Source: Dictyostelium discoideum (taxonomy: Eukaryota). Taken from it: DNA of 64,000 nt. Below the pieces are notes generated by a model. It was given only the letters and a program-made list of their open reading frames with translations, was not told where the DNA came from and made no database searches. Positions 4,140-64,000 of this stretch are shown here, piece by piece. The position numbers and the translations under genes are program-made. The number at the start of each line of letters is the position of its first letter. Position 1 is the first letter of the stretch. The stretch covers positions 3,264,001 through 3,328,000 of the forward strand of contig CM000155.2 in assembly GCA_000004695.1 (NCBI GenBank), given 5' to 3'.

Positions 4140-6399
4140 ACAATAATAACAATAATAATAATAATAATAATAATATTACAAATAATAGAGTATGGAAATA
4201 TTATCAAACTCATTCATTAGAATGGTTAATTAAAAATAATCATTGGCAATTATTTAAATATCGTTTAAAACGTGGTGATTATATCTCATTCAATGAACAA
4301 TCATTTAAACTTATTCATAAATTATTTGATCAAATTAAATTATATGAAGAAAAAGATGAAAAAGAAAAAGAAAAAGAAAAAGATAATGATAAAAGTATTA
4401 ATAATAATAATAACAATAATAATAGTGAAAAGATAAAAGGTTGTAAATTAGATGGAAATGAAATTAAAGAGATATGGAGTTTATTCTATAGACAATATCA
4501 AACTACATTATTACATTGTTTAGATAATGCAGTAGCGGCAAATAACTTAATAGCTTTACAATCGATTGTAGAGAATTCATCATTTCTAATTCAATATCAA
4601 CCAGATATACAATATAAAGCAATAGCAAGTGGTAATGTTGAATTATTAGTTTATCTTCATAGTATTGGTATCGATTCAAAATTAAATCCCCTATTAGTAA
4701 TTGATTATGCTCAAAAATCTTCAAATGTTAGTAATATGATTAGATATTTAAATAATAAGAGATATAATACAAATAAATCACCCAATGATAATAATAATAC
4801 AACAACAGCGACAACAACAGCGACAACAAGTAACAATAATAAAAATACAACTACTACCACTACTACTACTACCACTACTACAAATACAAATTCAAATTCA
4901 AATTCAAATTTAAATTCAAATTCAAATTCAAATTCAAATTCAACTACAATGAGTAGTTCATCATTACCAAAATCACCAGAAAGTTTTATAACGGATGAAG
5001 ATTTTACAGAAGCAGAGAAAGAATTTTTAGGTTTAAAAGATTGTGTTTTAGTTGATAAAGATAGTATTATGTTACCAAGTTCAAGTTTATTATTTGACCA
5101 TTTAAAGAGTAAAACGGTATTTTATAAATTAGATTATGATTTACAATTGATTTTTGTTAGGGAGAGTAAGAATTGTAAAATTTCATTCTTGGAGGATTTA
5201 GTAAAATGTTTTAATCCTTGGAAAGATCATACACTACAATCGATGGATATTATCAACTATGTGAATATAATGCAAAAGATAATGAAAATGGATATATTTG
5301 GAAGCAAAGGTACAGCTGCATTATCATTATTAGAACTAGCCAATGGATCATTGTTTAGAATTTGTTCAAATTATAATAGTGATAATATCAATATCGATAG
5401 TATTGAAAATAATCAATTACTGTCTGGTAATTTACCAGATAGAGCAACATTAATGGAGTTATTATATAATCAATGGGTATTGCCATTAAAAGATACAACA
5501 TTCAATCAAAAGAATACATGCTATTATAAATCAATCACTCAAGGTAACACAATTGAAGCTGAAAAATTAAGATTTGAACAAATGAAACCATCAATCAACT
5601 ATTTAGAGAAAGCAACCTCTCTCTTGGAAATCTCATTTAGAAAAGCTCATATCCCTTCATTAGAATTATTCTTAAAAATTTATAAATTAAATCATCTTTT
5701 CACTTATGATTATCATAACTTTTTTTCAAATAAATTTCAAATTGATTCAAATTTATTTATAGATTTAAAAGAAGATAATAATAATAATATTAATATTAAA
5801 AATGAAATTAAAGAAGAAGAAGAAGAAAAAGAAAAAGATAATAATAATAATGAATCAATTGAAAAAAAGAAAAAAGAATTTTTAACAGTTTTATTAAGTA
5901 GAACAGAATTTACAAATTCATTCTATATGAATTTAATGATTACATTAATTGAAAAGAGAAAAGATTTTAAATTGGCAGAATTTTGTTTTCAATTTCAAAG
6001 TTGTAAAATTTATCAAACAAATTTATATCAAAGTGCGATAAAGAATAATAGTATTGAATTTTGTAAATTTTTATTTTCAAAATCTGTGAAATTACAAAAA
6101 CAGGATTTAGAACTTTTAACTACAATTCCAAATAATGTGGATTTATTAAAAGAGATTTTAAAATCAAATCAAGTACCATCATTAATTGAAATTTATCATT
6201 TAATGGAAAGATCAATTAAAGATTCAAGATTAGACATTTTAAAATGTCTTTTAGAATCTTTTCCTTCTTCAATGAAATTCGATTTATTAAATTATGCTGC
6301 AAATTTTAATAGAAATGAAATTATTGATTATTTAATGTTAAATCATTCAAATTCAATTAAAACTATAACTAGTAATGGTACATCTCCAAATTCAATATC

Positions 6400-41731: not shown

Positions 41732-42321
41732 ACTTCTTTCATAACTTTAATAGTTTCATTTTTAAATGCAAAGCCTTGAACAATATTACTAGTATCAGAA
41801 GATTTAAAGAATTTTAAAGAGATTGGAATACGAAGATCAATATTATTATTGATTGTACCTCTAATGACTTTTCTAATAATTTCTGGACCACCACCATAGA
41901 CTTCCTTTAATTTGATCCAAGTTTTTTCTGGAACCAATGTAAAGCTGGTTGTTTCGCTAATGCCTGGTCTTAATTCACCATTTTGTAAAATATCATCATT
42001 GGTTATTGGTCCTAATTCCTCTCTACTGTTTATTTCTTCTGACCATTTACTATACCATTTGTTACTAATTATTGCCCATTTTTCGCCAACTACTAAAGAA
42101 GTTTGTTTAATTTCTTTTTTCAATTTTTGAATATCTTCTCTGGTGAGATCTGGTATTTGTTGTTGTTGTTCTGCTTCTTCAATTGGTTTCATCTCTTGTT
42201 CATTATTATTATCATTATTGTTGTTTTTTTCTTTTTCTCCACCATTTGTATTTTCTATATTATCTGTTGTAGAATTTATATCTTCAAATGTTTGATCTTG
42301 TGCTGAATTTGTATTATCCAT
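39029..42321 (-). CDS. Ubiquitin carboxyl-terminal hydrolase of the USP4/11/15 type (DUSP + UBL + USP catalytic); 3 exons complement(join(41734..42321,41500..41628,39029..41377)), 1021 aa
   Basis: Exon 1 (ATG 42321; the track 'M' at 42336 is a TTG) encodes the DUSP domain (KQTSLVVGEKWAIISNKWYSKWSEE...). Exon 2 encodes RACKVFNLDPINIRIWDFYNQ... (UBL, cf. USP15 IRKIFSIPDEKETRLWNKYM). Exon 3 begins ILLEEKLANGKWPQ and carries the Cys box GLGNLGNTCFMNSALQCL and the His box near the C-terminus. Donors are GTAAGT (41733) and GTAGGT (41499). Acceptors are TTTTTTAG (41629) and TTAATAG (41378). Exon lengths sum to 3066 nt. Confidence 0.8.
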
Positions 42322-43888: not shown

Positions 43889-45217
43889 TATAGCAATGAA
43901 ATTGATGAATTTGGAGAACAAATTCAGACACCACCAAATGTTCACACAAAACAAGAGATTTTAGAAAAGATGGTTGAAGATTTAGACCAATATATGGTTG
44001 ATGAAAACTTTGATAATGGAGATGAAGAATATGATGAATATAATAATAAAATCGATTTACCTCATAAAAATAATGCAAGAGATTTTACAACTCCACAATA
44101 TATTATTGATGATGATTTAGATTTTAAACATTATTCACATATTAAAAAGCCAGATGGTTCAAATTATAATAATATTGAAGAAATTTTAAATTATTTAATA
44201 AATGAAAAAAAAGTATTAGAAATTAGCAATAAAACTATTGATAACAATAATAATAATAATAATAATAATAATGAATATCATAGACCAAGAATTAATCAAT
44301 CAGAATTTGGTCAACATTTAGAGAATGAATTAAAATCATTACCTTCAGCAGTAATAAATACATGTAGGTTGCTATTAAATAATTTATATAAAATTTTTTT
44401 TTTTTTTTTAAAAAAAAAAAAACTAAAATTTATATGTATAAATAATTTAATTTAGATTTTGAACAATCAAGTGGATTAGTTGAATTACATAAATATATTA
44501 AAGAGAGTAGAGATACATTAAATGGATTTTCAAAATCATTTGATTCAATTATATTAGAGTTATCAAATTTAATTAAAGATATGCCAGATAATCATGTTGC
44601 ATCACTTCAAATTTCAAAATCACTAGAGAATAGAATTTTAGCTAGAGCTGAACTTTGTAATATAGTTGAAACTGTAACAATTCCACCAGATTTAATAAAG
44701 CAAATATTTTGATTATTATTATTATTATTATTAATAGGTATATACAAAGAATAATTTCTAATACTTTTTTTTTTTTTTTTTTTTTTTAAAATTAGAAAAT
44801 TAACATCAGATGATTTAAATGAAGAATATATAAAATGTATAAAAGAATTGGAGGATAGAATTAAAAGTTTAGATCCATGGATGATGAAAAAAGAAGCAAA
44901 ATTTATAGAGGATATAGCATATGAAATTGATTTATTAAAAAAGAAAGCAAGTAAATCAGTTAGAGATTATCTATTAAAACTTATAATTGGTTTAAGAAAA
45001 CCAAGAACCAATATTCAAATCTTACAACAATCTAAATTATTTAAATATTCACCATTGAATGAATTTATTTATCATAATTCACCTTCTTCTGCAATTGAAG
45101 TTAAAAATTCTTATATTGAAACTTTATCAAGAACTTTTACAATGTATTTTAAAAATTATTTAACAAATTTAACAAAAGTTTTTGTAAGTTTAAATTTATA
45201 AAAATAAATTATAATTA

Positions 45218-45267
<50 letters not shown>

Positions 45268-46766
45268 TATTAAATTTTTTTGTTAATTAGAATCAAATTG
45301 CATTAAAATCAGATGTAATTGGATATATTGAACAAGTTAAAGGATATTTTGGTACAGTTAATAAAGGATTTGAATTAAATAAAGCATCAGCATTTAATTT
45401 ATATATTTCAGGATTACCAATTGATATTTGGACTAGTATTAGAAGTGAAACTATTGAACAAATTCCAGAAAGATTTAGTAGAGCTGATATATTGACAAGA
45501 TGTTTAGATGCACCATTGATTATACCACATGCAGCAATTAAGAATGGTAAAAAGTATCCATTTGAACAAATTTTTAGATCAATGAATATTTTATTGTTGG
45601 ATACTATTTGTTCAGAATATTTATTCGATAGACAATGGTTTGCAAAACCATTATTGGCAAATTCACCAGATGCATTAATACCCTCGATTTTCAATAATAT
45701 CTTTCAACTTTACTATGACAATATCTTTTCATTCGTTGGTGGTACCTATGATTGTTTATCATTGTTGTTATGTTTACAAATCAATAGCATCTTGGTTCAA
45801 TTGTTAATTGATAGGAAATTATGGGATCGTATATCATGTTTAAAAACTTATTTTCAAAAATTGGATGTTATAATTTGGGATAGATTTAGTGAAGTCTTTA
45901 AAAGGAATATCGATAGTTTAAACTTGGCAATTAAAATGGATACACCTCCAACCGATTTTAGACCTCATATTTATACTCGTAGATTTTCAGAATTTTATTC
46001 AAGTATTGCAGAAATCTTATCACATAATGAAGAACCAAGAGTTTTAGCTTGGGTAGCTGTATTACGTTCGTCAATGGAAAGATTATTATTACATTTTTCA
46101 AATTCTTTTACTGATATAAAATCAAAATCAATATTTTTAATTACAAATTATGATGTTGTAATTACTGTTTTTTCTGTAAGTGTTTTTTTTTTTTTTTTTT
46201 TTTTAAAAATTATATATCTTTTTTTTATTTTTTTTTTTTATTTATTAATAATTAATTTTTTTATTTTTTTATTTTTTTATTTTTTTTTTTTTCCAAAGGA
46301 AAATAATATAAATCAAAATGAAGAAGGTTATTTAAAATTTTTAAATTTATTACATGAACAAATTGATATATTTGTAGAATTATTATTATTTAGTTATTAT
46401 AAAAGTTTAATTACTTTTATAAAGGATACAGAATTTAGTTGTTCAAATGTTTCAAATTATCAAATAGATAAGAATCAATTATCAATGTTAATTGGTGAAT
46501 TCTCACAAAAATGGAAAGATATATTATCAAAAATTCAAACAGAAATTATGACAAATTTTTCAAACTTTAATTTAGGTTCAAGTATTACAAAGAAAATTAT
46601 CACTCAATATTTATTATACTATAAAAGATTTGAAGAAATTTATAAAAAATTCATTAAACAATCATCAACCACTGATGGAAATAATAATCAATTAAGATTA
46701 GCTTTTATACCAGTTTCAACTATTACTTATGAAATTTCAAAAAGTTATAGTTCTTTTAATCCTTAA
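43775..46766 (+). CDS. vps52: GARP complex subunit Vps52-like protein; 5 exons join(43775..44363,44456..44699,44796..45183,45291..46175,46299..46766), 857 aa
   Basis: ATG at 43775 (the track start 43769 is a GTG). Exon 1 opens with a 35-Asn run. Intron 1 is GTAGGT...TTTAG, phase 1. Intron 2 has no GT donor compatible with the frame; the only clean solution is a GC-AG intron (GCAAAT at 44700 to AATTAG at 44795), giving ...TIPPDLIK|KLTSDDLNEEYIK. Intron 3 is GTAAGT...AATTAG. Intron 4 is GTAAGT...CCAAAG. Exon lengths sum to 2574 nt. The Vps52 assignment rests on C-terminal similarity and is moderately confident. Confidence 0.6.
43800..43887. repeat. (AAT)n microsatellite (~29 units) encoding the poly-Asn tract at the vps52 N-terminus
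   Basis: Read directly from the sequence. Confidence 0.9.
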
Positions 46767-46893
46767 AATAAACCAATAAAAAAAAAAAAAATAAAAAAAA
46801 AATAAATAAAAAAAATAAAAAAAATAAAAAAAATCAATGCATAATACAAATATATGTTTTGTAAAATTTTATAGTATTTAAATATACTATTTT

Positions 46894-48411
46894 TTAATTT
46901 TTAATTTTAAAAATTTTATTATAAAAATAATCAGCAGTAAAATTATTTAATAAATTAACATTACCAAAATGAATTATTAATTTATCTAATGATTTTGGTA
47001 AATTAATTTGATATAACTGATGAGAATATTTTGAATTTTTAATTTCTAATATTTTTAAAGAATTTGGAAGTACATCTTTACCAATTGGTTTATCAAATGT
47101 AATACCTAATTGTAATGATGTCAAAGTCGGTGGTAAATCAGCAGGTTTAATATACTGATTGAAATTATCCAATACCAATGATTCCAATGAGGTACAATCC
47201 AATGAATCCTTAATAATTGATAAATTATCATTAAAACCACCCAAATTTAAATGTTTTAATGATTTTGGTAATGTATTTATTGGAATCACATTTTTAAATT
47301 GTTTACCAAATTCTAAAGATACCAAATTCGTATGCAAGAATAAAGCAGACATCGAGGAAGTGGAAAGCGGTGGATTGAAATTATCACCAAATTTGAGGCA
47401 AGTCAATGACGAGGGTAGCATTGCGGCGGTCAAACTTTGGTTAAACTCCAATCCAAATTCTAAATTGGTTAAATTTGGTGGTAGTACACATAGCTGGAAA
47501 TCACCATTCAAAGGTTGATTAAACTTGCTTCCAAATTTAATGGAGCCAAGCGAGGCTGGTAAAGAGCCTGCTTTAATTTCACGATTAAAAATTTGATTAA
47601 ATTCAATTGTTTCAACATTGTGTGGTATGTAACCCTCTTTAATAATGGCATTAAATGTTGGACTAAAGCTTAAATTTATCGTTGAGATTGGTATTGGGAT
47701 ATTTAAATTCAAGCTTGCAATATAGTTCAAATCTTTCACTTTACTTGGAATTGAGCCTGGCACTATAACACCCTTATATTGGCTACTTAGATGTAAATTC
47801 TCCAATGTTTCAGGTAAAATATTTTTATTTATAGTTTGTTGAAATGAAATTCCAAATTTTAAAAATTTAATTTTACTTGGTAACCAACCACCATCTAATG
47901 ATTGATTAAATAATTCACCAAATTCTAAACTTGTGACTGAATCTAATAATTTAACATTATCCATAACTTCATTAAATTTATCATTGAAAATAATAGATTT
48001 AATTGAATATGGGAATATACTATTACTTTCTTGTTCTTTATCGTTATTTACTACTAGTAATTCTGATAATTTCATTGATGTTGGTGTTGGCGTTGGTGTT
48101 GGCGTTGGTGATGTTGGTGATGTTGGCGGTGTAGTGGTGGTGCCACTTTTATTTAATTCTTTTACAATTACATTATTTAGTTTTAAATCTGAATCTTCTT
48201 CATAATTTACAAATATTAAATTTTCAATATAACTTTTGTATTTATATGTTGAATATTGATCTATTGTCATTTTCATTGTGGTGTGAACATTAAATAATCT
48301 TGTGTGAAATAATATTTTATTTAAAATTATTTCATTCCTCCAACAATTAAAAAATAATTCACAATTACTATTACTTGTTGATGATGATGATGATGTTGTT
48401 GTTTTAATCAT
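46894..48411 (-). CDS. FNIP-repeat-containing protein, 505 aa
   Basis: ATG at 48411. It has multiple ~22-residue repeats with the F[NG]Q[SP]L...LP..L..L.FG consensus (EFGELFNQSLDGGWLPSKIKFLKFG, EFGLEFNQSLTAAMLPSSLTCLKFGDNFN...), typical of the Dictyostelium FNIP repeat family. Confidence 0.7.
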   Translation of the reverse strand: MIKTTTSSSSSTSNSNCELFFNCWRNEIILNKILFHTRLFNVHTTMKMTIDQYSTYKYKSYIENLIFVNYEEDSDLKLNNVIVKELNKSGTTTTPPTSPTSPTPTPTPTPTSMKLSELLVVNNDKEQESNSIFPYSIKSIIFNDKFNEVMDNVKLLDSVTSLEFGELFNQSLDGGWLPSKIKFLKFGISFQQTINKNILPETLENLHLSSQYKGVIVPGSIPSKVKDLNYIASLNLNIPIPISTINLSFSPTFNAIIKEGYIPHNVETIEFNQIFNREIKAGSLPASLGSIKFGSKFNQPLNGDFQLCVLPPNLTNLEFGLEFNQSLTAAMLPSSLTCLKFGDNFNPPLSTSSMSALFLHTNLVSLEFGKQFKNVIPINTLPKSLKHLNLGGFNDNLSIIKDSLDCTSLESLVLDNFNQYIKPADLPPTLTSLQLGITFDKPIGKDVLPNSLKILEIKNSKYSHQLYQINLPKSLDKLIIHFGNVNLLNNFTADYFYNKIFKIKN

Positions 48412-48698
48412 TTTGTAATATTAATTATTATTATTTATAAAATGAAGTTATCAAATTTGATTTTTGAAACATAAAAAAAAAAAAAATTTTTTTTTGTTTT
48501 TTTAGAAAAAAAATTTTTAAAAAAAAAATCTTTACTTGAATCAATTTCCAAGACATCCAATTTTTTTTTTAGAGTTTCCTTGTTACTATTTTTTAAAAAA
48601 AAATTTCAAAATTTGTTAGAATCTCTTTTTTGTTACAAAAAAAAATTAAAATTTATTATTACATATTTATTCATTTATTTTCATCAAAAAAATTGTGT

Positions 48699-48789
48699 GC
48701 TCTATTAACTCAGTCGGTAGAGTGAAGTACTTATATATCAGTATGATAAAGCAATGCTTTGGTCGCGAGTTCGATCCTCGCATGGAGCA
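48699..48789 (+). tRNA. tRNA-Ile (anticodon UAU) with an 18-nt intron, 91 nt; identical inverted copy of 35859..35949
   Basis: Same sequence and structure as the minus-strand copy. Confidence 0.65.
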
Positions 48790-48818
48790 ACTTTTTAAGG
48801 CATTCTTACATGGATCAA

Positions 48819-48831
48819 GTGTTCGATTCCC
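48819..48831 (+). promoter_or_regulatory. Ex-B box (AGTGTTCGATTCC) ~30 bp downstream of the plus-strand tRNA-Ile
   Basis: B-box-like GTTCGATTCC with no tRNA structure around it. Confidence 0.45.
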
Positions 48832-49513
48832 TATTAAAATACGAATTGAAATTATATTAAAATGGAAGATTTCAATCCCACAACCCTCAACTCACCAAAA
48901 CTGTCTCGATTTATTAATTATTCATTTATATCAAATAATAATAATGATAAAATTATTTTTTACAAATATGCTATTTCTGAACCATCATATTTTAGAAGAA
49001 TTACATTTAGAGAAACACCAATCGATATCGATTTGAAATTCCCACTAAACCCGTTTCAAGGCATATTTTTTAAAAATCCTTCAATTCATCATTAAAATGA
49101 TTATTTTAATGTAACTGATCATTAATTTACCACTGGTGATAATGTTGTTGTTTGTAGAACCTTTATACATACCCTATCGCCAAGGGAGACTATATTACTT
49201 ACAATGATCATATATCAAATACCTTTTATATTAAAACTGGTTTTCATCTTTCAGATCTTTTTATGGAAATTGTGGATCTTAAAAAGTTATCATGAAATGC
49301 TTATAAAATTACAAAAGTTTGAAGCATATAAAAAATCATTTTATTTTTGTGAAAGTTCAAAAACATCAAAATCATACTCAATTTATAAATATGATTTAAC
49401 AAATTTTGAATCATCTCCATACTTTCAATTGACATTAAAAACTTTTCATACAAATTAGTAACAACTATTCAACATGAAATTACATATACAATTCCATGTC
49501 AAGAATATTATAT

Positions 49514-49561
49514 TTTTTTTAAAATAATAATAATAATAATTATAATAATAATAATAATAAT

Positions 49562-49642
<81 letters not shown>

Positions 49643-49660
49643 TATAAAAATAAAAATAAT
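49514..49660. repeat. Imperfect (TAA/ATA)n microsatellite followed by an A-run
   Basis: Read directly from the sequence. Confidence 0.85.
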
Positions 49661-49681
49661 AATAAATATTTTCAAACCAAA

Positions 49682-49720
<39 letters not shown>

Positions 49721-49980
49721 AATCAGGATTTACGGTCAACTTTAAAGAGATAACAAGGTTCAAGATGAAAAATTAGGCTACTATATTATTCTAAACTCTA
49801 ATTAAAACAAAAATAAAAAAAAAAAAAAACCAATAAATTTATAAAGATCTGGGTAAACTTTGAATTTTAATTAATTTATAGTTTTTAATAAAAATAGAAA
49901 ATTTTATAAATAATCAATTTCACTTTCAATTTTTATTTTTTTATTTTTTATTTTATATTTATTTATTTTTAGTTTGCCAA

Positions 49981-50364
49981 TTAGCATGAATTGAATTGGA
50001 AGAAATATGTTCCACCTTGGAAGGTTCCTGATTTGGCATAGGTAGCAATAAACATGTATTGGTTGTAAATAATACCTTTTACACCAGTGAAACCTGAAAA
50101 GCCATATGGTGGATTAACATTATAAAGGTAACCATTAGCAGTGAATGAGGAATCTGAATTAACAGTGATGTTAGCAATAACATTTCTTCCAGAACCATTG
50201 ATAATTTGATAACCAAAATTATTTTGAGAGATGTTAAAGACACCAGCTGGAGTTGGACATGTACCTTCTTGATAACGAAGGTAAGAACCAGTTTGTAATG
50301 CTTGACCTTGAACTAAATTAACAATGAATGCTAAAATTAAAACGTAAAAAATTGATTTGAACAT
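49981..50364 (-). CDS. Small secreted protein (127 aa) with signal peptide MFKSIFYVLILAFIVNLVQG
   Basis: ATG at 50364. The mature part is Gly/Tyr/Asn-rich and ends ...FQFNSC. Confidence 0.5.
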   Translation of the reverse strand: MFKSIFYVLILAFIVNLVQGQALQTGSYLRYQEGTCPTPAGVFNISQNNFGYQIINGSGRNVIANITVNSDSSFTANGYLYNVNPPYGFSGFTGVKGIIYNQYMFIATYAKSGTFQGGTYFFQFNSC

Positions 50365-50675
50365 TTTCTATTATATAGGTTATGTTTTTGAATGAAAATA
50401 ATATAATAATAAAAAAAAAAAAAAAAAAAATACAATGGCTTTATTAAATTTTTTATTTTTTTTTTTTTTTTTTAATTTTTTTTTTTTTTTTCGTGAAAGT
50501 TAAAATATCAAAGTCTGGCCTACGCTCGGAAATAAAAATCAAAATGACGTCATTATTTATTTCAATATTTTTTTTTTTTTTTTTTTTTTTTTTCGTGAAA
50601 GTTATTAAATTTGTTACAAAAGATATTTTTTTATTTATTTTTTTTTTTGCACATATTTTTTTTTTATTTTTATTT

Positions 50676-51035
50676 TTATATACTAACAAAACTTTCTTCA
50701 TCTTCAAAGAGTGATGATTGACATGAAGTGAATGAATAGTAATATGTACCACCATTGTAACCTGATGATGGTGCATAAATAGCTTGGAAACTGAATGGGT
50801 TGTAAATAATACCTTTAATACTTGTATAGCCAGAAAAACTATATGGTGGTTGAACATAAAAGAGGTAACCAGTTGCAGTGAATGCATTATCAGATTCAAT
50901 GGTCATATTTGCAAAGACTGGTCTTTGTGAAGTTTTCATAGCTTGATAACCATATTCATCTTGAGTGATTGTAATGTTTGAAAATAAGTATGGACAACAA
51001 AATTAAAAGAGATAATGATTTGATGAACATTTTAT
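50676..51035 (-). pseudogene. Frameshifted tandem paralog of the 49981..50364 secreted-protein gene
   Basis: A signal-peptide ORF (ATG 51031, MFIKSLSLLILLSILIF) and the homologous mature region (TATGYLFYVQPPYSFSGYTSIKGIIYN...SFTSC, cf. TANGYLYNVNPPYGFSGFTGVKGIIYN...QFNSC) lie in different frames. No intron of viable length can join them. It is either a pseudogene or a sequencing error in a T-run. Confidence 0.45.
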
Positions 51036-53757: not shown

Positions 53758-54746
53758 AAATAAATAAAAAAAATGGGAAAAGGGAAAATGATTTTTATTT
53801 AATTAAAAAATAATTTTTTAATAAATTTTATTTAATAACCGTCAATATATTAAAAAAAAAGAAAAAAAAAAAAAAGTAAAAATTTAAAAATAAAGTAATA
53901 GTTTAAAAAAAAGAGTATTTTTATTATTTCATTTTTTTTATTTAAAAATTTTACCAAAATAAAGTCAATGTGGTTGTTAAATTATATGAATATTAATTAA
54001 ATAATAATCGATTACTTTTGAATTTTTTTTTTTTTTTTAATCACTTTAATTTAAGCAATTTTTGTTTGCTTTTGGTCACTTAAAACAAATTAAATGATCA
54101 AAGAGAAGTTCCACTACAATGGTTCTGATATAATAAAAAAATATTGAAGCTAAGAGATCTTTTGGATTTTATTGACCATTTTAATTGGTTGATAAACAAT
54201 TGTTATTATTAATAATATTATTGTTATTATTTTCGTTTTTTCGATATTTCTTTAATTTTTAATTTTATTTTCACAAAGGGAACAAAATATAATAGTTTGA
54301 GCAAAAAATAAAAAAAAAAAAAAAAAAATTAAAAAAAAAAAAAAAAAAAAAAATTTGAATCCCAAACTTGAAAATTAAAAATTAAATAAAATAAAATAAA
54401 AAAAAAAAATGATCAAAAAAAAAATGATCAAAAAAAAAAAAAAAAATTAAAAAAAAAAAATTAAAATAATATTTTAATTTAAATCTCATACCACTAAAAA
54501 TAATTTAATAAATAAATAAAAATAAATTATAATATCAATTTTTTTTTTTTTTTTTTTTTTTGGGGGTTTTTTTTTGGGGTATTTTTTTTTTTAATTTTTT
54601 TTTTTTTTTGCACTACCTCTAAAAGTATTTGACAATCTTTTTAATATTATAATCTTTGTAGAAATTATTTATATATTTATTTATTTTCTTTTTTATTTTT
54701 CATTAACATATAAAAATCTTTTAATATTATTTAATTATTTATCTTA

Positions 54747-55215
54747 ATGGGTAAGTTAACCACCTTAAACATTGATCGTTTTTACACAGAATATTTTTAT
54801 AAAAATAAAAAAAAAAATAAAAAAAAAAAAATAAAATAAAATAATAGATGGTTTTTTTTTTTTTTTTTTTTTTTTTTTATGATCAAACTAAATTTTATTT
54901 TTAAATATTAAAGAAAACAAAACCATTTAAACAAATAGTGAAAGTAAAGTCTTTTTTGCTAATTAATTTTTCTTTTTTCTTTTTCACAATTTAAGATCAG
55001 CATAAAAGCAAAGAGCAGGAAGTAATTAACAATGAACCAGAGGATTTATTGTTAATAAGAACCTATGGTGACAATTCTAGTGCTCGATCATCAGGTCAAC
55101 TAAATATTCGAGATTCACCAAACAAGCCATTTAACTATCCTTATGTCATTCCACCAAAAAAAGACTTAATAGATTTATTACAAGAACAAGAGTTACAACC
55201 GCAACAAAAAGAACC

Positions 55216-55287
<72 letters not shown>

Positions 55288-55289
55288 GC

Positions 55290-55321
<32 letters not shown>

Positions 55322-56302
55322 GATCAACCACTACAACAACAACTACAACTACAACTACAACAACAACTACAACTACAACAACAACTACAACAACTACAAC
55401 TACGACTAAAAACACTACAATTACAACAACAACTACAACTACTACAACTACAACTACTACAACTACAACAACCACAACAACAACTACAACTACAACTACT
55501 ACAACTACAACAACTACAACAACAACTACAACTACAACTACAACTACTACAACAACAAAAAGCAAAAAAAGTTGATAAGGATTTGGAAATAATTGAGAAA
55601 TTTAAATCAGCAAATGAAAGTTCACTTTCAAAACAAGAAAAAACAGTAAAATTCTATCACAAAGGTACTCTTTACCAATATGGTTTTTCTCAAGAAACAT
55701 TTGATAAAACTATCGATGCCTCATTAAGTGAATTAATGATTAGCATAAATTGTAGATACATAGAGGTGATTGATAAAAATGAAAAAGGTAAAGGAAAAGT
55801 GATCCATGATTTAATTGGTCCAGCCGTATTCAATAATAAGGTAATTAATGACATAATCTTTGGTTTTTGTTACTACGATAAAGAGTTTCGAAATTGCCAA
55901 AAACATTGGTCATTAAGAATAATGGAGCATAGGACAAAATATCCAACAATTTTGAATATATCCATAACCATTTTACGTAACATCCAGGTTAGATGTAAAG
56001 ATATTTATGTAATTTTGGTAAATTTATTAATGGGTCATACTTTAGTCACTGGTTTGAAGTTATTTATTGATAAATTAGTCTCTTTTATCGATGGTCTCGG
56101 AAATAATAAAAAAGTAGAAATCTTTAAAATTGAAGATTTTGAAGAATTAATTCGATTATTCAAATTGGAGTATATGGATTATTCAATATCCATATATACA
56201 AGGGATTATTTTAAAGAATTAAAGAGATATATATATTTACTTCATCTCTTTTCAACCAATAAATTGTCAAATGAAAATGTGTTACCAATAACTCAAAACT
56301 AA
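54747..56302 (+). CDS. Hypothetical poly-Q protein, paralog A of a tandem family; 2 exons join(54747..54750,54996..56302), 436 aa
   Basis: Exon 1 is the micro-exon ATGG followed by GTAAGT. The acceptor TTTAAG at 54995 restores M-D-QHKSKEQEVINNEPEDLLLIRTYGDNSSARSSGQ... A Q33 tract and (QQLQL)n follow. The conserved C-terminal domain reads KVDKDLEIIEKFKSANESSL...IEVIDKNEKGKGKVIHDLIGPAVF... Confidence 0.6.
55216..55322. repeat. (CAA)n microsatellite (~35 units, one CAG) encoding poly-Gln, followed to 55560 by imperfect (CAA CAA CTA CAA)n
   Basis: Read directly from the sequence. Confidence 0.9.
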
Positions 56303-57359
56303 ATAATAATATTCAACTTTACAAAATATATTAATAACATCACATCAAAATAGAATTGATTATCCTTGCTTTACCATCAACCCAATTTTAATGACTGTCC
56401 TCCCAAGCTTCAAACTATTGCTTGATATTATTTATATATAAACAATATTACAAACTTTTCTTATCAACTAATTTTAATTTATTAATCTTTTTTTTAAAAA
56501 AAAAAAAGAAAAAAGAAAAAAATTAAAAAATAATAAAAACTAAACCATATTTTTAAAATTTATAAAAAAAAATATATATATTTATTTATGTGTTCAGCAA
56601 GAATCTTTAAGTTCCTTTTTCCAAATTTATTTCTATCACAATTAAAAATTAAATCCAAAATAAAATAAAATAAAAATTAAAAAAAAAAAAAAAAATAAAA
56701 TCAACCATTTTCTTTTTTTTCTTTTCAATTGAACTTCAAAATTGCACAACAACAAGAATTTTTTAAAAAAAAAAAAAAAAAAAAATTTTAATTTAAAAAA
56801 ATATTTATAAAAGGAAAAAGCAAAAATAAAAAAAAAAAAAAAAAAATCACAAATAAAAACTAGAATCTACAATAATCACCACCACACTTCCCTTTTTAAT
56901 AAAAACAAAAAAAACAAAAAAAAAAAATGGAAAAAAAATATACATTTAAAAATAATTATTATTTTTAATTGTTTTCAAGATTTATAAATAAAACATCGGT
57001 TTTTTATATTTAAAGAAAAAAAATAAAAAAAAATAAAAATTAATTTAAGAAAAAAAAAAAAAATTTAAAATTAATTAAAAAAAAAAAAACTTTAATTTCA
57101 TCAATTTTATTTTTTAAAATAAAAATTTTTTTTTTTTTTTTGTTTTTGTGTTTTTTTTGAGAAATTTTTTTTTTTTTTTTTTTATTTTTAATTAGTTACC
57201 TTAGTTTATATTATTTATTTTTTCATATATTTTCTTTTTTTTTTTTTTTTCATATATTTTCTTTTTTTTTTTCATATATTTTCTTTTTTTTTTTTTTTCT
57301 AAACAAAAATCTTTGATATTATTTAATTATTTTTATAAACTGTATTTATCTTTATCTTA

Positions 57360-58131
57360 ATGGGTAAGTTAATCAATATAGTAAAATACTCACCACGTTT
57401 TTCATTTTTTTAAAAAAAAAATCTAAAAATTTTATAAGATCATAATAACATTGTTGATATCCTTACCAAAATGAGTAATTTTGTAAAAAAGAAAAAAAAA
57501 AATAAAATAATAAAAATAATAAATAATAAAAAAATAAAATTAAGTTCATAAATGCATTCATCACCTCCCGTTTATAAAAAAATAAAAAATAAAAAAAAAA
57601 AAAAAAATTTATCCAAATTTTTTATTTTATTTTATTTTACTTTATTTTTGAAGACCAAACATATTAATTGTTTGAAAATCTAAAAATAAATATGGTATTT
57701 TATTTATTTTTTATTTTTACAATTTTTTTTTTTTTTTTTCTAATTTTTTTTTTTTTTTAAATAACATCGACGAGGATTTAAAAATTATAAAGAAAATAAA
57801 ACCATATAAATAAACGGTGAAAGCAATGTTTAATTAATTTAATTTTTATTTTCTTTTTTTTTTTTCTACAAATTTAATAAAGATAAACAAGACCATGATA
57901 AAAGTGAGGGGTGGAAAGTCATCAACAATGCACCTAATTTGGTGAAAGTTTTAAATTCCTATGGTCACAATTCTTGTGCTCAATCATCAGGTCAAAAAAG
58001 AGAAATTCCAGTTTCATCATCAGATGAGCAGTATAATTTTCCAACTAAAGAAGAATTTCTTATCAATTTAATACAACAACATCCCCAACAACAAGAACAA
58101 CCTCATCAACAACAACAAGAACAACCTCATC

Positions 58132-58190
<59 letters not shown>

Positions 58191-58940
58191 ATAGAAAAAG
58201 TTGATAGGGATTTGGCAATAATTAAGGAAATTGAATCAGCAAATGAAAGCTCACTTTTAAAACTAGAAAAAAAAACAGTAGCAATCTATTTCAAAACCTC
58301 TATTTACAAATTTGAATTTTCTCATGAAACATTAGATAAAACTATTAATGTCTTATTAGGAGAATTAATGGTTAGCAGAAATTGTAAATATATAGAGGTG
58401 ATTGACAAAAATGAAAAAGAAAAGAGAAATGTGATCCATGATTTAATTGGTCCTGCCGTATTCAAGAATATGGTAATTAGAGAGATCATTTTAAGATTTT
58501 ATTTTCATAAAAGAGAGTTAGAAATTTGTGAACAAGATTGGTCATCAAGTATAGTACTATATAAAACAATGAATGAACATAAAACAATTTTGGATATTTT
58601 AATACAGATTTTACATAACATCCAGCTTAGATGTGAAGTTATTTATGAAGGTTTACAGGTCGATCATCCTTTAGCCCTTGGCTTAGGCTCATTCATAGAA
58701 AAATTAAATCCATATATCAATGGCCTCAGAAATAATAATGAAGAAGTGGAAATCTTTAATTCTAATGATTTTAAAGAATTAATTGAATCATTCAAATTCG
58801 AGTATATAAATTTATCAAAATCTGAAAATTCATGTGCTAAACAATTAATGATGGATTATTTTAAAGAGTCAAAGAGATATTTATTTTTATTTTATTTCTT
58901 TACAATCAATAAAGATCAAATCAAAATGAGTTATCAATAA
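57360..58940 (+). CDS. Hypothetical poly-Q protein, paralog B; 2 exons join(57360..57363,57883..58940), 353 aa
   Basis: It has the same ATGG|GTAAGT micro-exon, with the surrounding 19 nt ATCTTAATGGGTAAGTTAA identical to paralog A. The acceptor AATAAAG at 57882 gives M-D-KQDHDKSEGWKVINNAPNLVKVLNSYGHNSCAQSSGQ... Its C-terminal domain is collinear with paralog A (KVDRDLAIIKEIESANESSL...IEVIDKNEKEKRNVIHDLIGPAVF...). Confidence 0.6.
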
Positions 58941-59760
58941 CTCAAAACCTAATAACAATTAATATTATAAAAAAAAAATAATAAAACTCAACTTTACAAA
59001 ATAAAATAATACCTTTTATAAAAAATTAAATAAAAATAAAATAAATAAAAAAAAAAAAATAAAATAAAATAAAATAAAATAAAATAAAATAAAATAAAAG
59101 ATAATTAATAATTTCATTAAGATAATTTTATTTAAATATATAAAAAACTATTAATATAATATTATTCTAAAAACCTCAAAATTATTTATTTATTTTATTT
59201 AAAATGAAAAACAAAATAGTTGGTGGTTGTGTGTAAGAAATAATTAAATTGAGCTGCACAAAACAAAATAATAATTTTGAGGTTTTTAGTATAATAGTTA
59301 CAAAAAATTTCTTGATTATAATATTATATTAATAGTTTTTTATATATTTAAATAAAATTATCAAGTGTCGAGGTATTTCCTTATGTTATCCCACAAAATT
59401 AATAAATAAAATAAAAGAAGTGTGATTGACCAAAATAATAAAAAAAAAGGCTATAGCACAAAAAATAAAAAAGGCTTTAGCACAAAAAAAAAAAAAAAAA
59501 AAAAAAAAAAACCCCTTTTCACCAGTTAAAAATAATTATTTTTTTTTTTTTTTTTTTTTTTAATTTTTTGATCGGAAATTAAAAATAATCAATTTCACTT
59601 TTTTTTTTAATTTCTCCCCTATTATTTTTTTTTTTTAATATTTTTTTTTTTATTTTTTTTTTTTTCAACACAAAACACCTACAAAGAATCTTTATTATTA
59701 TATACCTATTTTTATTATATTTTTTTTTTTTTATTTTAAGCGATACACTATAAAAATATT

Positions 59761-59804
<44 letters not shown>

Positions 59805-59857
59805 ACTATTTAACCATTTGTAAGATTTGTAAGTTTACAATATATATATATTATTTT

Positions 59858-60895
59858 ATGACCATTAATGTACTAACTAACAATCTATTAGCAAATCACA
59901 ACATAGATAAACTCAAAGCAATGTCAACCGATAATTTTGAAAAAATTAAAGGTAGACCAACCCAAAAAGAGGAGTGGCAATTAAAAGAATGGGAAAAGGA
60001 AAAAGATGAAAATAATAGACTTTTTCAAGAACAAAAACAAAAAACAACAAACAGAAAAGGTTGATTTGAATGGTGATTAGATCTAATTAATGAAATTATA
60101 GAAAGTGCAACTTCATTAACTCCAGCAACATTTGATAAAAAAGAAAAAGATAAGAGAAATATCGTCCGTATCTCACTCGGATCCATATTCAAAAGTAAGG
60201 TAATACTGAATAATATAAACAAGTTTTATAATAATCATAATTATGTAATATCTGGATAAAAATGCCAAACTTGTTTTATACATTATTCTATCAGGATATT
60301 CATTTACTGTTTTGTACATCTTTGACCAATATTGCTTGCAAATTTCAAATTCCTCATTATAACATCCAACTAAGGTGCCATGAGATTCACGCAAGCACAG
60401 AACATAATTTAGGGAAGAATCATCCTATAGTCTCAGGTTTTGATGCATTCATAGTTAAATTGGATTACTTTATAAATTGTCTCGCAAATGATAATTATGG
60501 AAAAGTTGAAATCTTTAGATTTGAAGATTATGAAGAATTGATTCAATCATTCAAATCTGGGTATATGGATTTATCTGGTAATTCAGAAAACGAGCAATTG
60601 ATGCATCACTTCAAAGAATCAAAGATACATATTCTTAGTCCATTTTATTTCAATGAACAAGGATCAAATCAAAATGAACCCAATTCCACTCAATCCACAA
60701 TCACCATCAGCATCACCACCAATCGGAGTAGAAACAGTGAAACTATTAGAAAATAATAAAATTTTTATTATTAATGGGAATCAAATAGATTTTGGTATTG
60801 ATGATTATGAAACAAATTTAAATTACACTAAATGCATTTACCAACAACCCTCAATACCATTGATAATCCTTGACCTGGATATCAACAAAATTTAA
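59858..60895 (+). pseudogene. Third, degenerate copy of the same family (fragments in three frames)
   Basis: Homology to paralogs A/B is split across frames: ...KKEKDKRNIVRISLGSIFKSKV (about 60120-60200), NIQLRCHEIHA...VEIFRFEDYEELIQSFKSGYMDL...FKESKIHIL (60262-60660), then NKDQIKM... in another frame. It is either decayed or interrupted by unrecognised introns. Confidence 0.4.
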
Positions 60896-61551
60896 TTGCT
60901 ATCTGTTTCTCCATAAGTTTCCACAACAATTGACCATTCTTTCATATCAAATGATTTAACAATTCCAACTTCCAACTGTTGGCTGATAATAAAGAAAAAA
61001 AAAAAAAGAAACATGTCCAATTTGTAATATTAAAATATTAAAGTACCGAAAGGTTTTAGAAAAAAAAAAAAAAAAAAATTTGTATTACTACTACCTTTTT
61101 TAATAAAAGTTTATTTAGTTTTAAATTGTGAATTTTAATTTTATTTTATTTTATCTAAAAAAATTTAATTATTTAATTTTATTTTTTTATTATTTAATTA
61201 TTTTTAATAAGGAGGCCAACCATTTTTTTATATTGATCAATCAGTGTTTATTCATTAAAGGAAATAAACAATAGTTAATTTTTTATTTGTAAATTTTAAT
61301 TTTAAAATTAAAAAGATGTAAAGTAATTTTTTCTTTTTTAATTTATATAACTAAAGAATTTAATATTTTGAAATATAGTTGACAAAACTCGTATCACCTG
61401 GCTGTGAATTTTTCAATGTCATGATTCATCTCAAGGTTATTAATATTTTTATGGTATAGTATGATAATTAACACCACTTTTGCACCTTTATCAATTTTAA
61501 TTATGGTCTTTAACGAACCATTATCATCAAACAATCATTGAAAACATCAAT

Positions 61552-61633
61552 GACATCGTAGCGAAGTGGTCTAACGCGTTTGACTTGAAATCAAATCTCC
61601 TAGGAGGCGCAGGTTCGAACCCTGCCGATGTCG
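61552..61633 (+). tRNA. tRNA-Ser (anticodon UGA), 82 nt with a long variable arm
   Basis: The sequence is GACATCGTAGCGAAGTGGTCTAACGCGTTTGACTTGAAATCAAATCTCCTAGGAGGCGCAGGTTCGAACCCTGCCGATGTCG. The acceptor stem is GACATCG/CGATGTC. The anticodon loop is CTTGAAA. The variable stem-loop is CTCCTAGGAG. The T-loop is GGTTCGAACCC. Confidence 0.8.
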
Positions 61634-61689
61634 ACAATTTTAATGTTAATATTAATTAGATACCCGCTTTTTTTTGGCATCTTTATTTC

Positions 61690-64000
61690 TAACGACTAAA
61701 AAGACATTTCTCTTGGCATTTTGATAATAAAAAGCCTACAGTTGATCAAACGGATACTAGATACAGAAAAACATATCCATCATCAATCTAACATCAACTA
61801 CATCTATCTACTCTACACACTAATTCCTTCAATCCTTGGATTGGGAATAAGAATAGATCTGAATAAACGAGAAAGAAAAAAAAAAAAAAAAAAAATAAAA
61901 ATAAAAATCAAAAATATTTTTATATAAACACATAATTAAAAAAAAAATAATAAAAATAATATAAAAAAAAAAAAAAAAAAAAAAAAATGAATTTTTTCGA
62001 TAAACTTAAAGGTGAACTCAACTTAGGCGAAGAAGTTAAATAAAAAAACTATTCAAATAAGGTTATTCTACCCAAATACCTTGGAATTAAATAGTAATTC
62101 AACAAAATTAATAGATAATTTCATAGTTAATGGTACTCTTAACATTGTCAGAAGACAAAAGGGTATAACAGTATTCGGTAGAATACTAAAAGAAAAATTC
62201 ACATTATTACACGAGTGTTACAGCACTTTCAAGTATGAAGATTTCCCACTGCAAAAATTCATACTTTACACCCCAGGATATCACTATGTCCACTTTTACA
62301 CATTTACAAAAAACATAATAAAAAAAATAAACAATCAAATGGTAAAAGAAAACTGGGGATTGGAGCCATTACTAATAGATGAATGCAACATAGTAATGCT
62401 ACCAGATGTGATTAGATATTCATGCATACTATTATTTAATAAAGAAGATGATATCTCAATCATTAAAACAAACATTGATGCTATAAAAGGTAGTAAGCAT
62501 CCAATAAGAGCCTTCATCTCTGAATATAACAATAAAGAAATAAGAGATGTTAGAAAAAAAAAAAACACAAGTAATAAAAACCAACAACCAACAACTACAA
62601 ATACAACTAAATCAATACCATCAACTCCACCAACAACTAATGCATCAACAACCACACCAATAACAACCACACCAATAACAACCACACAAACAACAACCAC
62701 ACCAACAACAACCACACATCAATTACCAACAAGCAATACAACAATCTACAACCTAAACAAAACTACTACTACTACTACTACTACTACAAAACCTATCAAT
62801 AAAATTACTACAAGCAATGGTACCAAGTTTCCAATTGCCAGTAGTATTAGAAAATAATGGAACAATTAAAATTATTACTATGGAACTGCAGAGGTAATCA
62901 ATCAACCAACGCTAAGAATAAAACAGAAGAAACGATAAAAAGAATTGGCACTCAATTAGCACTCCTAACTGAAACTAATTTCAATGGATTCAACCACCAC
63001 AAAACAATGTTCAACTTTGAAAGAATAGATCATGGTTCAGGTAAAGGAACTGGCATAGCAATAGAAAATAGAGATACAAGAAAAGGCCACATATCAATAA
63101 ACTTCAAAGACGATGATGGTAGAATACTATCAATTAAATACAATTCCTTTAATTCTATCAACATATTATTGATCTATGCTCCAGCGACTATATCTGAAAG
63201 AAACACCTTCATAATCAACTCAAAATCACTGTTTAAAAAATATAATTCAATCAACCATCAAATAATAGCAGGCGACTTCAATAACAACCACGATTGCAAC
63301 AGCTTCTTCGGTACTGAATTACGTAAAATAATAGACCAAGACATGCTACTAGATACTGGTATTGAAGAAAACACTCCAACATTTCCAAGATCAATGAAGA
63401 GACTAGATAGAATCTACTGTCATCCAACACTACTAAACCAAAATTCAAAACTGGTAGTCCACAACACAGTATTTAACAAATCAGATCACTTTCCCATCAC
63501 AATCACAATACAAACCAACAGAGAAACAACAACAACAACAACAACCAAACTAGAAAGACTCCCTTGGACATTATGTAAAGAAATTCTCAACAACAAACAT
63601 ATACATGATGGGTTATCAGAATTAATCAGTAAGAACAAAGATAAGATCAAATCAGTGGAGGAATGGACGAAATTTAAAAATAATGTCATCAGAGATTATT
63701 TAAAAAAAGAACAAAACAAAATAAAGAAAGAAAAGAACAAAAGAAAATACGTAATCCACAAATTACTTGGAAATAGTGATATCATTCCAAAGATGAGAAA
63801 AGAACTCAATGAAGAAATAAGTAGAATATTAGAAGAAGAAAGAAAGGTAAAAGCATGGGATATCAAATTAAAACTCCACCTGCATCAAGAAACACCAAGC
63901 AAATACCTCACAAGTATCCTTAAATCCAGAGCCAAAGATAAATCAATATTCCAAATAAAAGATAAAGATAATAAGACCATATCAGATAAAGAGAACATAG
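61690..64000 (+). mobile_element. Non-LTR (TRE3-type) retrotransposon, 5' portion: ORF1 (about 62081..62857) and the start of ORF2 (ATG 62857, AP-endonuclease domain, running off the window); begins <=100 bp downstream of tRNA-Ser in the same orientation
   Basis: ORF2 EEP endonuclease motifs are present: LLLWNCRG, ILLIYAPA, IAGDFNN, LDRIYCHP, SDHFPITI. ORF1's stop and ORF2's start overlap in ATAATGG. ORF1 has a Thr/Pro-rich tail and no in-frame ATG at its 5' end (the track start is a TTG). The exact 5' end of the element is uncertain. Confidence 0.65.

Follow-up and report, generated by a model that had tools for sequence, protein, structure and literature searches.

A tandem gene family on Dictyostelium discoideum chromosome 6 with putative split start codons in two copies and a transcribed pseudogene as the third

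Copies A and B and their first exons

We analysed a stretch of 64,000 nucleotides (nt) from chromosome 6 of Dictyostelium discoideum AX4 (contig CM000155.2, positions 3,264,001 to 3,328,000; about 78% A+T), hereafter called the window, which carries a tandem cluster of three paralogs, here named A, B and C. A profile scan for the family found exactly three copies in the window and no fourth. The cluster represents an uncharacterised gene family; every homolog detected comes from the D. discoideum clade or from D. dimigraforme. An earlier reading made from the sequence alone (the sequence-only reading) had proposed that A and B begin with a tiny first exon, ATGG, and that the third copy is decaying. 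For comparison we used the syntenic loci of four diverged discoideum-clade isolates (L001, L002, L003 and L012) and an AX2-like assembly (L010, GCA_054883475.1) that is 99.5% identical to the window over 54353-61953. Copies A and B are very probably intact protein-coding genes in which a spliced 5' intron divides the start codon from the rest of the coding sequence; here the splicing is inferred from sequence and its conservation. Their features are as follows.

54747-56302, + strand: copy A, 436 amino acids (aa), beginning MDQHK...
54716-54746, + strand: upstream block and leader of A (AATCTTTTAATATTATTTAATTATTTATCTTA), aligned in seven A/B-type genes and found by pattern search
54747-54750, + strand: coding end of exon 1 of A, ATGG, putatively Met plus the first base of Asp (sequence; L010 gene model)
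54751-54995, + strand: predicted 5' intron of A, phase 1, 245 nt, GTAAGT...TTTAAG (sequence; ortholog comparison)
54928-54950, + strand: intron core of A, TAAACAAATAGTGAAAGTAAAGT, common to all seven introns
54996-56302, + strand: exon 2 of A with stop codon (sequence)
54996-55216, + strand: N-terminal region of A, within exon 2
55217-55558, + strand: Q/L-rich linker of A, Q35 plus QQLQL-type repeats, within exon 2
55559-56299, + strand: C-terminal domain of A, within exon 2
57360-58940, + strand: copy B, 353 aa, beginning MDKQDHDK...
57309-57359, + strand: upstream block and leader of B (alignment; pattern search)
57360-57363, + strand: coding end of exon 1 of B, ATGG (sequence; L010 annotation; the B orthologs P0001 and P0002 start MDKQDHDK)
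57364-57882, + strand: predicted 5' intron of B, phase 1, 519 nt, with its core at 57807-57829 (sequence; alignment)
57883-58940, + strand: exon 2 of B with stop codon (sequence)
58074-58190, + strand: Q-rich linker of B, within exon 2
58191-58937, + strand: C-terminal domain of B, within exon 2

The start-exon context is the same in both copies, as the sequence-only reading had it: a 20-base stretch, TATCTTAATGGGTAAGTTAA, recurs unchanged at 54740-54759 (A) and 57353-57372 (B), and ATGGGTAAGT occurs at two sites in the window, the starts of A and B. The intron lengths and phase-1 acceptors given in that reading were likewise exact. In both introns the acceptor is the first AG to follow a T-rich tract, and removal of the introns would yield a protein beginning M-D. 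A TAA in the exon-2 frame of copy A stands directly before the acceptor codon. Copy B has two in-frame acceptors 9 nt apart, at 57883 and 57892 (AATAAAG/ATAAACAAG/AC), the first of which would yield MDKQDHDK and the second, with exon 2 starting from 57892, MDHDK; the pair is kept in every B-type gene, and MAFFT pairs the second acceptor with that of A.

Five further A/B-type genes were identified at L001-L003 which, together with A and B of the window, give seven genes in four genomes. All five read ATGG/GTAAGT, and in each the first AG past the T-rich tract leads into a long open reading frame (ORF) beginning M-D, so that a canonical GT...AG intron directly after the first codon restores a long in-phase ORF in all seven genes. 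An intact gene at L012 (ATGG/GTAATT; 441 aa by our modelling, MDKQDYDK) brings the ATGG, donor and in-phase acceptor to at least eight A/B-type genes in five genomes, and a decayed copy at the same locus also has ATGG/GTAAGT. Intron length varies from 82 to 519 nt among these genes while the boundaries and phase are constant; the L001 ortholog of A has an intron of just 82 nt with the same boundaries as copy A. The term micro-exon used in the sequence-only reading needs correction. The leader before ATGG has no acceptor, so the second flanking intron that defines a micro-exon is missing; ATGG is the coding end of a first exon whose remaining part is 5' untranslated region, and not an internal micro-exon.

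Alternatively, ATGG might be unused, translation of A and B starting downstream at Met249 and Met164, and the upstream similarity reflecting promoter conservation only. This would agree with the C-type paralogs, which do initiate translation in exon 2, and with the outcome of our RNA searches, in which no read or contig across the A or B junction was recovered (guessed Logan products, with break points in the CAA repeats, were off record). However, the first in-frame ATG of exon 2, at residue 249 in A and residue 164 in B, appears only after 150-248 codons in all seven genes, none lies upstream in frame, and these codons are open throughout. In seven of seven genes the open frame of exon 2 starts at the acceptor or no more than 17 codons before it, and in the A-type genes a stop stands right before the acceptor. 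The codons preceding the first internal Met are conserved as protein (37-42% identity between A and B, 72-92% between orthologs) and include the first third of the C-terminal domain, and ATGG, donor and phase are invariant despite a six-fold change in intron length. A downstream start is therefore extremely unlikely, and we favour the split start at ATGG. No ATG occurs in the 60-nt leader before the start codon in any of the seven genes. Public annotation points the same way: the NCBI annotation of GCA_054883475.1 contains the exact 353-aa B protein and, starting at A's ATGG, a gene of 436 aa, and NCBI models starting at ATGG are present in L010 (A and B), L001 (A and B), L002 (B) and L012.

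The promoter and 5' intron were duplicated with the gene, as had been proposed. The upstream block (AAAAATCTTT(T/G)...ATATTATTTAAT...TATCTTA) is alignable in all seven A/B-type genes, and its chance expectation in the window is 0.11 matches at three or fewer mismatches. The consensus for this block in the sequence-only reading matches copy B exactly (57310-57332); copy A departs from it by one substitution and a 1-nt insertion or deletion. The leader of B has about 22 nt that are absent from A and from its L001 ortholog. The last approximately 100 nt of the intron are alignable between paralogs and include a 23-nt core, TAAAYAAAYRGTGAAAGYWAWGT, found in seven of seven introns, even the 82-nt A intron of L001. 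This core consensus has two matches in the window against 0.06 expected, the consensus having been derived from these same sequences. No conserved RNA fold of the core was found. Pairwise identities of the A+T-rich flanks were discarded, as shuffled controls scored equally high.

Copy C, a pseudogene of a separate subtype

Copy C lies downstream of B and comprises the following features.

59810-60895, + strand: extent of copy C (alignment to orthologs; profile scan)
59810-59828, + strand: 3' end of the non-coding first exon, which RNA-derived contig L007 joins directly to 59892 onward
59829-59891, + strand: leader intron, 63 nt, GTAAGT...TATTAG, removed in RNA-derived contigs
59892-60895, + strand: pseudogene body (tblastn with L1C, L2C and L3C; profile scan)
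59921, + strand: ancestral start (tblastn with intact orthologs)
60062-60064 and 60074-60076, + strand: in-frame TGA codons, after the first 47 codons from the ancestral ATG
59921-60049, 60083-60244 and 60614-60838, + strand: homologous pieces in frame +2 (tblastn; profile scan)
60358-60633 and 60838-60870, + strand: homologous pieces in frame +1 (tblastn; profile scan)
60241-60364, - strand: inverted 124-bp segment encoding CYNEEFEICKQYWSKMYK... (blastn, tblastn and profile scan)
60262-60756, + strand: remnant ORF DDB_G0293798 / Q54BA5, 164 aa (exact match to P0006)

The sequence-only reading had the domain of the third copy scattered over three frames. The copy is indeed broken, with an inversion of 124 bp as the principal lesion besides two TGA codons and two or more additional changes of frame, but its pieces lie in two forward frames and on the minus strand. 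The inversion is seen against all three orthologous genes, with minus-strand blastn hits to L001, L002 and L003 (E 7e-18 to 3e-22), and the segment was also recovered as a tblastn match in frame -1 and as a minus-strand profile hit (E 2e-8). No short inverted repeats were found exactly at the inversion breakpoints. The C orthologs of L001, L002 and L003 are intact single ORFs of 305, 293 and 314 aa that start MSTD.... They have no poly-Q linker and are missing some or all of the domain's alpha/beta half, and the subtype has N- and C-terminal extensions of its own.

The leader intron is spliced in the RNA-derived Logan contigs L007 and L009 and unspliced in contigs L004, L005 and L008; the L009 junction is the same as that of L007, but its upstream side is only 3 nt long. 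The donor region is conserved in the C orthologs. The sequence ATAGATAAAC of C aligns with AAAGATAAAC at the acceptor of B, placing the C intron at the position of the A/B intron. Because this intron is spliced and sits at that position, the C subtype has shifted its start codon into exon 2, and for the same reasons the C junction provides indirect support for splicing in A and B. We conclude that copy C is a transcribed and spliced pseudogene in the AX4/AX2 lineage. The earlier claim of decay thus stands as regards the stops, frameshifts and inversion, but the copy belongs to a distinct C subtype, intact in three relatives, and is not a decayed A/B copy.

It is unlikely that copy C is instead a remodelled, shorter functional gene, encoding either the 164-aa DDB_G0293798 product or the 279-aa product of a spliced model in the AX2-like assembly. 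The locus is transcribed and its leader intron spliced, and some 100 residues from the domain's helical half survive in the 164-codon ORF, which is present in public annotation. However, the first approximately 34 codons of DDB_G0293798 are the inverted segment read in the wrong sense, and in the spliced transcript the ORF is preceded by two others that initiate at AUG, 47 and 24 codons long. The NCBI model in L010 (5486-6523, about 59860-60895 of the window; 279 aa, with 198 nt of introns) starts at an ATG within 59829-59891, and since this intron is removed from RNA, the model looks forced around the lesions. The same coding sequence that is intact in three relatives (293-314 aa) is broken here by stops, frameshifts and inversion. 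A literature search found no paper naming DDB_G0293798, nearby gene-ID numbers or the runs from which the RNA contigs derive.

Between B and C we observed a palindrome of about 240 nt, with a perfect 45-nt inverted repeat (59121-59165 / 59318-59362) and inner arms at 59160-59196 / 59260-59296 (a 37-nt pair, 89% complementary). It is shared with the AX2-like assembly, and only its right-arm region is alignable to L002, which suggests an inverted duplication confined to the AX4/AX2 lineage. The 124-bp inversion in C is about 0.9 kb downstream of the palindrome.

Protein family, evolutionary rates and turnover

The C-terminal domain, put at about 230 aa in the sequence-only reading, is conserved between A and B with 52% identity over 243 residues (E 8e-71); the N-terminal regions share 37% identity over 59 residues. 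The poly-Q tracts differ between the copies, as had been noticed, although the run in A is of 35 Q and not 33, within a 114-residue Q/L linker, and B has runs of 3, 4 and 20 Q. The Q35 and Q20 runs are encoded purely by CAA and form a length-variable spacer between conserved regions; in orthologs the spacers consist of (EQ)n or (PQ)n repeats in place of poly-Q. The absence of a known fold was borne out within the searches made: all Pfam-A hits were below cut-off and on low-complexity stretches, a profile search against PDB sequences gave no significant match (best E 0.28), and no specific known fold was matched beyond generic topologies. AlphaFold models, built on alignments of four sequences and of moderate confidence, place a helix/hairpin/helix/hairpin unit ahead of a helical bundle. 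The N-termini are hydrophilic (mean hydropathy -1.5 and -1.7), no segment of clear transmembrane strength was found in A or B, and neither has a signal peptide.

An exhaustive profile search of 1.84 billion representative proteins recovered homologs in six clusters, all from Dictyostelium and confined to discoideum-clade isolates and D. dimigraforme. The family is uncharacterised and lineage-restricted. Its most distant homolog is a single-exon D. dimigraforme gene of 462 aa without the split start. No D. purpureum homolog was detected in this search, and the synteny check in D. purpureum that had been suggested is probably moot. Word-index homology searches gave only B-type orthologs and one fragment, the remaining homologs coming from the exhaustive search. 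Exact look-ups in a clustered protein collection were negative for A, B, their downstream-ATG versions, the alternative-acceptor form of B and a model resembling a ubiquitin-specific protease (USP; see below). We observed, however, that the exact B protein is in a gene-position index though absent from the clustered collection, so that these negatives look like coverage gaps, and that orthologs of the A type annotated as genes in L001 and L002 were never recovered by the word-index search. These resources may under-represent proteins with long low-complexity runs.

We compared synonymous divergence (dS) and the ratio of nonsynonymous to synonymous divergence (dN/dS) among orthologs and for two neighbouring genes. 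For the C-terminal domain of A orthologs, dS was 0.17-0.18 and dN/dS 0.75-0.79. B orthologs had a dS of 0.13-0.14 (domain) and a dN/dS of 0.44-0.59, and C orthologs a dS of 0.13-0.30 and a dN/dS of 0.64-0.77. The neighbouring Vps52 gene gave a dS of 0.05 with a dN/dS of 0.11-0.12, and the neighbouring FNIP-repeat gene 0.12-0.15 with 0.14-0.18. The dN/dS was 1.17 in the N-terminal region of A orthologs and 0.99 between the A and B domains, so that pairwise values across the family, from four to five sequences, span 0.4-1.2 against 0.11-0.18 for the neighbours. This fast protein change may reflect either relaxed constraint or diversifying selection. When the observed substitutions were placed at random, only 0.04% of trials left the ORF of A intact, and about 0.1% that of B; the A and B ORFs are nonetheless being actively maintained.

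These rates also bear on whether A and B are themselves nonfunctional, now or from the outset, and, like copy C, drift as ORFs of a lineage-specific family that is dying out. The elevated ratios (0.79 in the A domain, 1.17 in the A N-terminal region, 0.99 between the A and B domains) would fit such drift, as would the family fragments and pseudogenes present in every genome examined and the failure to find a known domain in the A and B proteins. Nevertheless, ORFs of 340-440 codons are open in several genomes despite 74-78% A+T, random placement of substitutions preserves them in at most 0.12% of trials, and B orthologs show a dN/dS of 0.44-0.58. Conservation extends to the promoter block, the splice sites and the intron core, and copy C exemplifies what real decay looks like at this locus. 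We therefore consider it very unlikely that A and B are nonfunctional, and retain the reading that both are intact genes.

Several further observations weigh against the reading of A and B as intact genes with a split start. The NCBI models of the A-type genes in L002 and L003 use other upstream exons, and the supporting annotations may share evidence with dictyBase/AX4 and so may not be independent. The same annotation set includes the model of copy C that starts inside an intron removed from RNA, and was therefore not RNA-guided throughout. The structure models are poor (predicted local distance difference test scores of 63 and 66). Finally, a dN/dS of 0.8 overall and about 1.2 in the N-terminal region of A orthologs is compatible with very weak constraint too.

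The content of the cluster is different in every genome examined. The gene at the A position of L002 (7433-8993) is chimeric: its promoter, intron and N-terminus resemble those of B, its domain resembles that of A, and its linker is (EQ)n; the dS of its 5' half to the B copy of the window is only 0.027, and in the NCBI model it is joined to an exon further upstream, at 6042. At L003 there are an internally deleted A gene and chimeric B/C fragments, and L012 has the decayed copy plus minus-strand fragments; the fragments at these two loci are deleted, chimeric and inverted. Birth-and-death dynamics, as put forward in the sequence-only reading, are thus well supported for this family.

Around the cluster, a block at 44228-51000 containing the Vps52 and FNIP-repeat genes is about 91% identical to 15329-21586 of L002 and 14466-20723 of L003. 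It lies upstream of the family in AX4, and downstream and in the opposite orientation in L002 and L003; because its order and orientation differ, the family was inverted relative to its neighbours in one lineage. A tRNA-Ser gene (anticodon UGA; 61551-61635, + strand) lies just downstream of the cluster, and an Rfam scan of 54-62 kb found no RNA family except one tRNA. Downstream of the cluster in L001 are two genes with reverse-transcriptase and integrase domains that look like retrotransposons.

Interpretation and known systems

Together, these observations are consistent with the following scheme. Transcription of A and B would start from promoter and leader sequence copied together with the gene, and the first exon would end in ATGG. 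Removal of the phase-1 intron (245 nt in A, 519 nt in B) would join the G to the AT of the long exon, giving M-D-.... Each product is predicted to be a soluble, modular protein with an N-terminal region of about 60 residues, a Q-rich linker that may grow and shrink through repeat slippage, and a domain of about 245 residues modelled as a small alpha/beta unit followed by a helical bundle. In the C subtype the 5' intron is retained within the leader and translation initiates in exon 2; in the AX4/AX2 lineage this copy is disabled by the 124-bp inversion, two in-frame stops and further frameshifts. Duplication, deletion and decay, together with gene conversion or chimera formation, probably account for the turnover of the family as a whole.

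The gains for annotation are checked models for two hypothetical genes and the recognition of DDB_G0293798 as the remnant ORF of a transcribed pseudogene. Beyond the anatomy given in the sequence-only reading, the present analysis adds the micro-inversion in C, the identification of C as a distinct transcribed and spliced subtype, the relocation of its start, the chimeric orthologs and the intron core. The locus offers a compact case of gene birth and death in social amoebae, in which one young family combines a conserved split start codon, start relocation to exon 2 in one subtype, gene conversion, linker turnover and inactivation by micro-inversion. A more speculative idea, which we think improbable, is that the family is a diversifying intracellular module of the discoideum clade (engaged, for example, in social, sexual or pathogen conflict), with the 23-nt intron core acting as an expression or splicing switch. 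If so, selection would drive the protein change, the variable linker length and the turnover in copy number, and genes whose coding first exon is this short would have a dedicated switch in the core.

In several classic Dictyostelium genes an intron interrupts the sequence at the ATG or immediately behind it; calA (calmodulin) and the gene for the myosin regulatory light chain are examples. Copies A and B resemble these in that a canonical, A+T-rich GTAAGT...AG intron follows the start almost at once, exon 1 consisting of the 5' untranslated region and a few coding bases; they differ in that the split falls after ATG plus one base (phase 1) and is common to a whole young family. Annotated neighbours in the related genomes start ATGCCTG/GTATGT and ATGTCTG/GTATGT. 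We also observed, at 41742 (- strand) of the window, the apparent start of a USP-like ORF (ATGAAAGAA/GTAAGT, a 356-nt intron, then an ORF of 785 aa resembling a ubiquitin-specific protease). First exons with very few coding bases seem commonplace here; the gene structure of A and B is normal for Dictyostelium, and none of the present findings alters the understanding of Dictyostelium genes. Long polyglutamine runs are likewise a common compositional feature of the D. discoideum proteome, and A and B share these long CAA-encoded runs, although the Q repeat does not define the A/B/C family.

In its mode of change the cluster recalls the tgrB/tgrC loci treated by Holland et al. 2025 (PMC12745789), where the A/B/C locus is not discussed. 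Both have tandem paralogs, shuffled fragments, pseudogenes and differences between close genomes, and in both cases the turnover is revealed by the same set of new assemblies. In contrast, the tgr genes encode polymorphic cell-surface proteins, whereas the A and B proteins have no signal peptide, no clear membrane segment and no detectable similarity to any known family. Copy C, for its part, resembles other transcribed duplicated or unitary pseudogenes in keeping its promoter and a spliced intron while carrying lesions where its orthologs are intact; its inactivation by an intragenic inversion of 124 bp is less usual than inactivation by point lesions.

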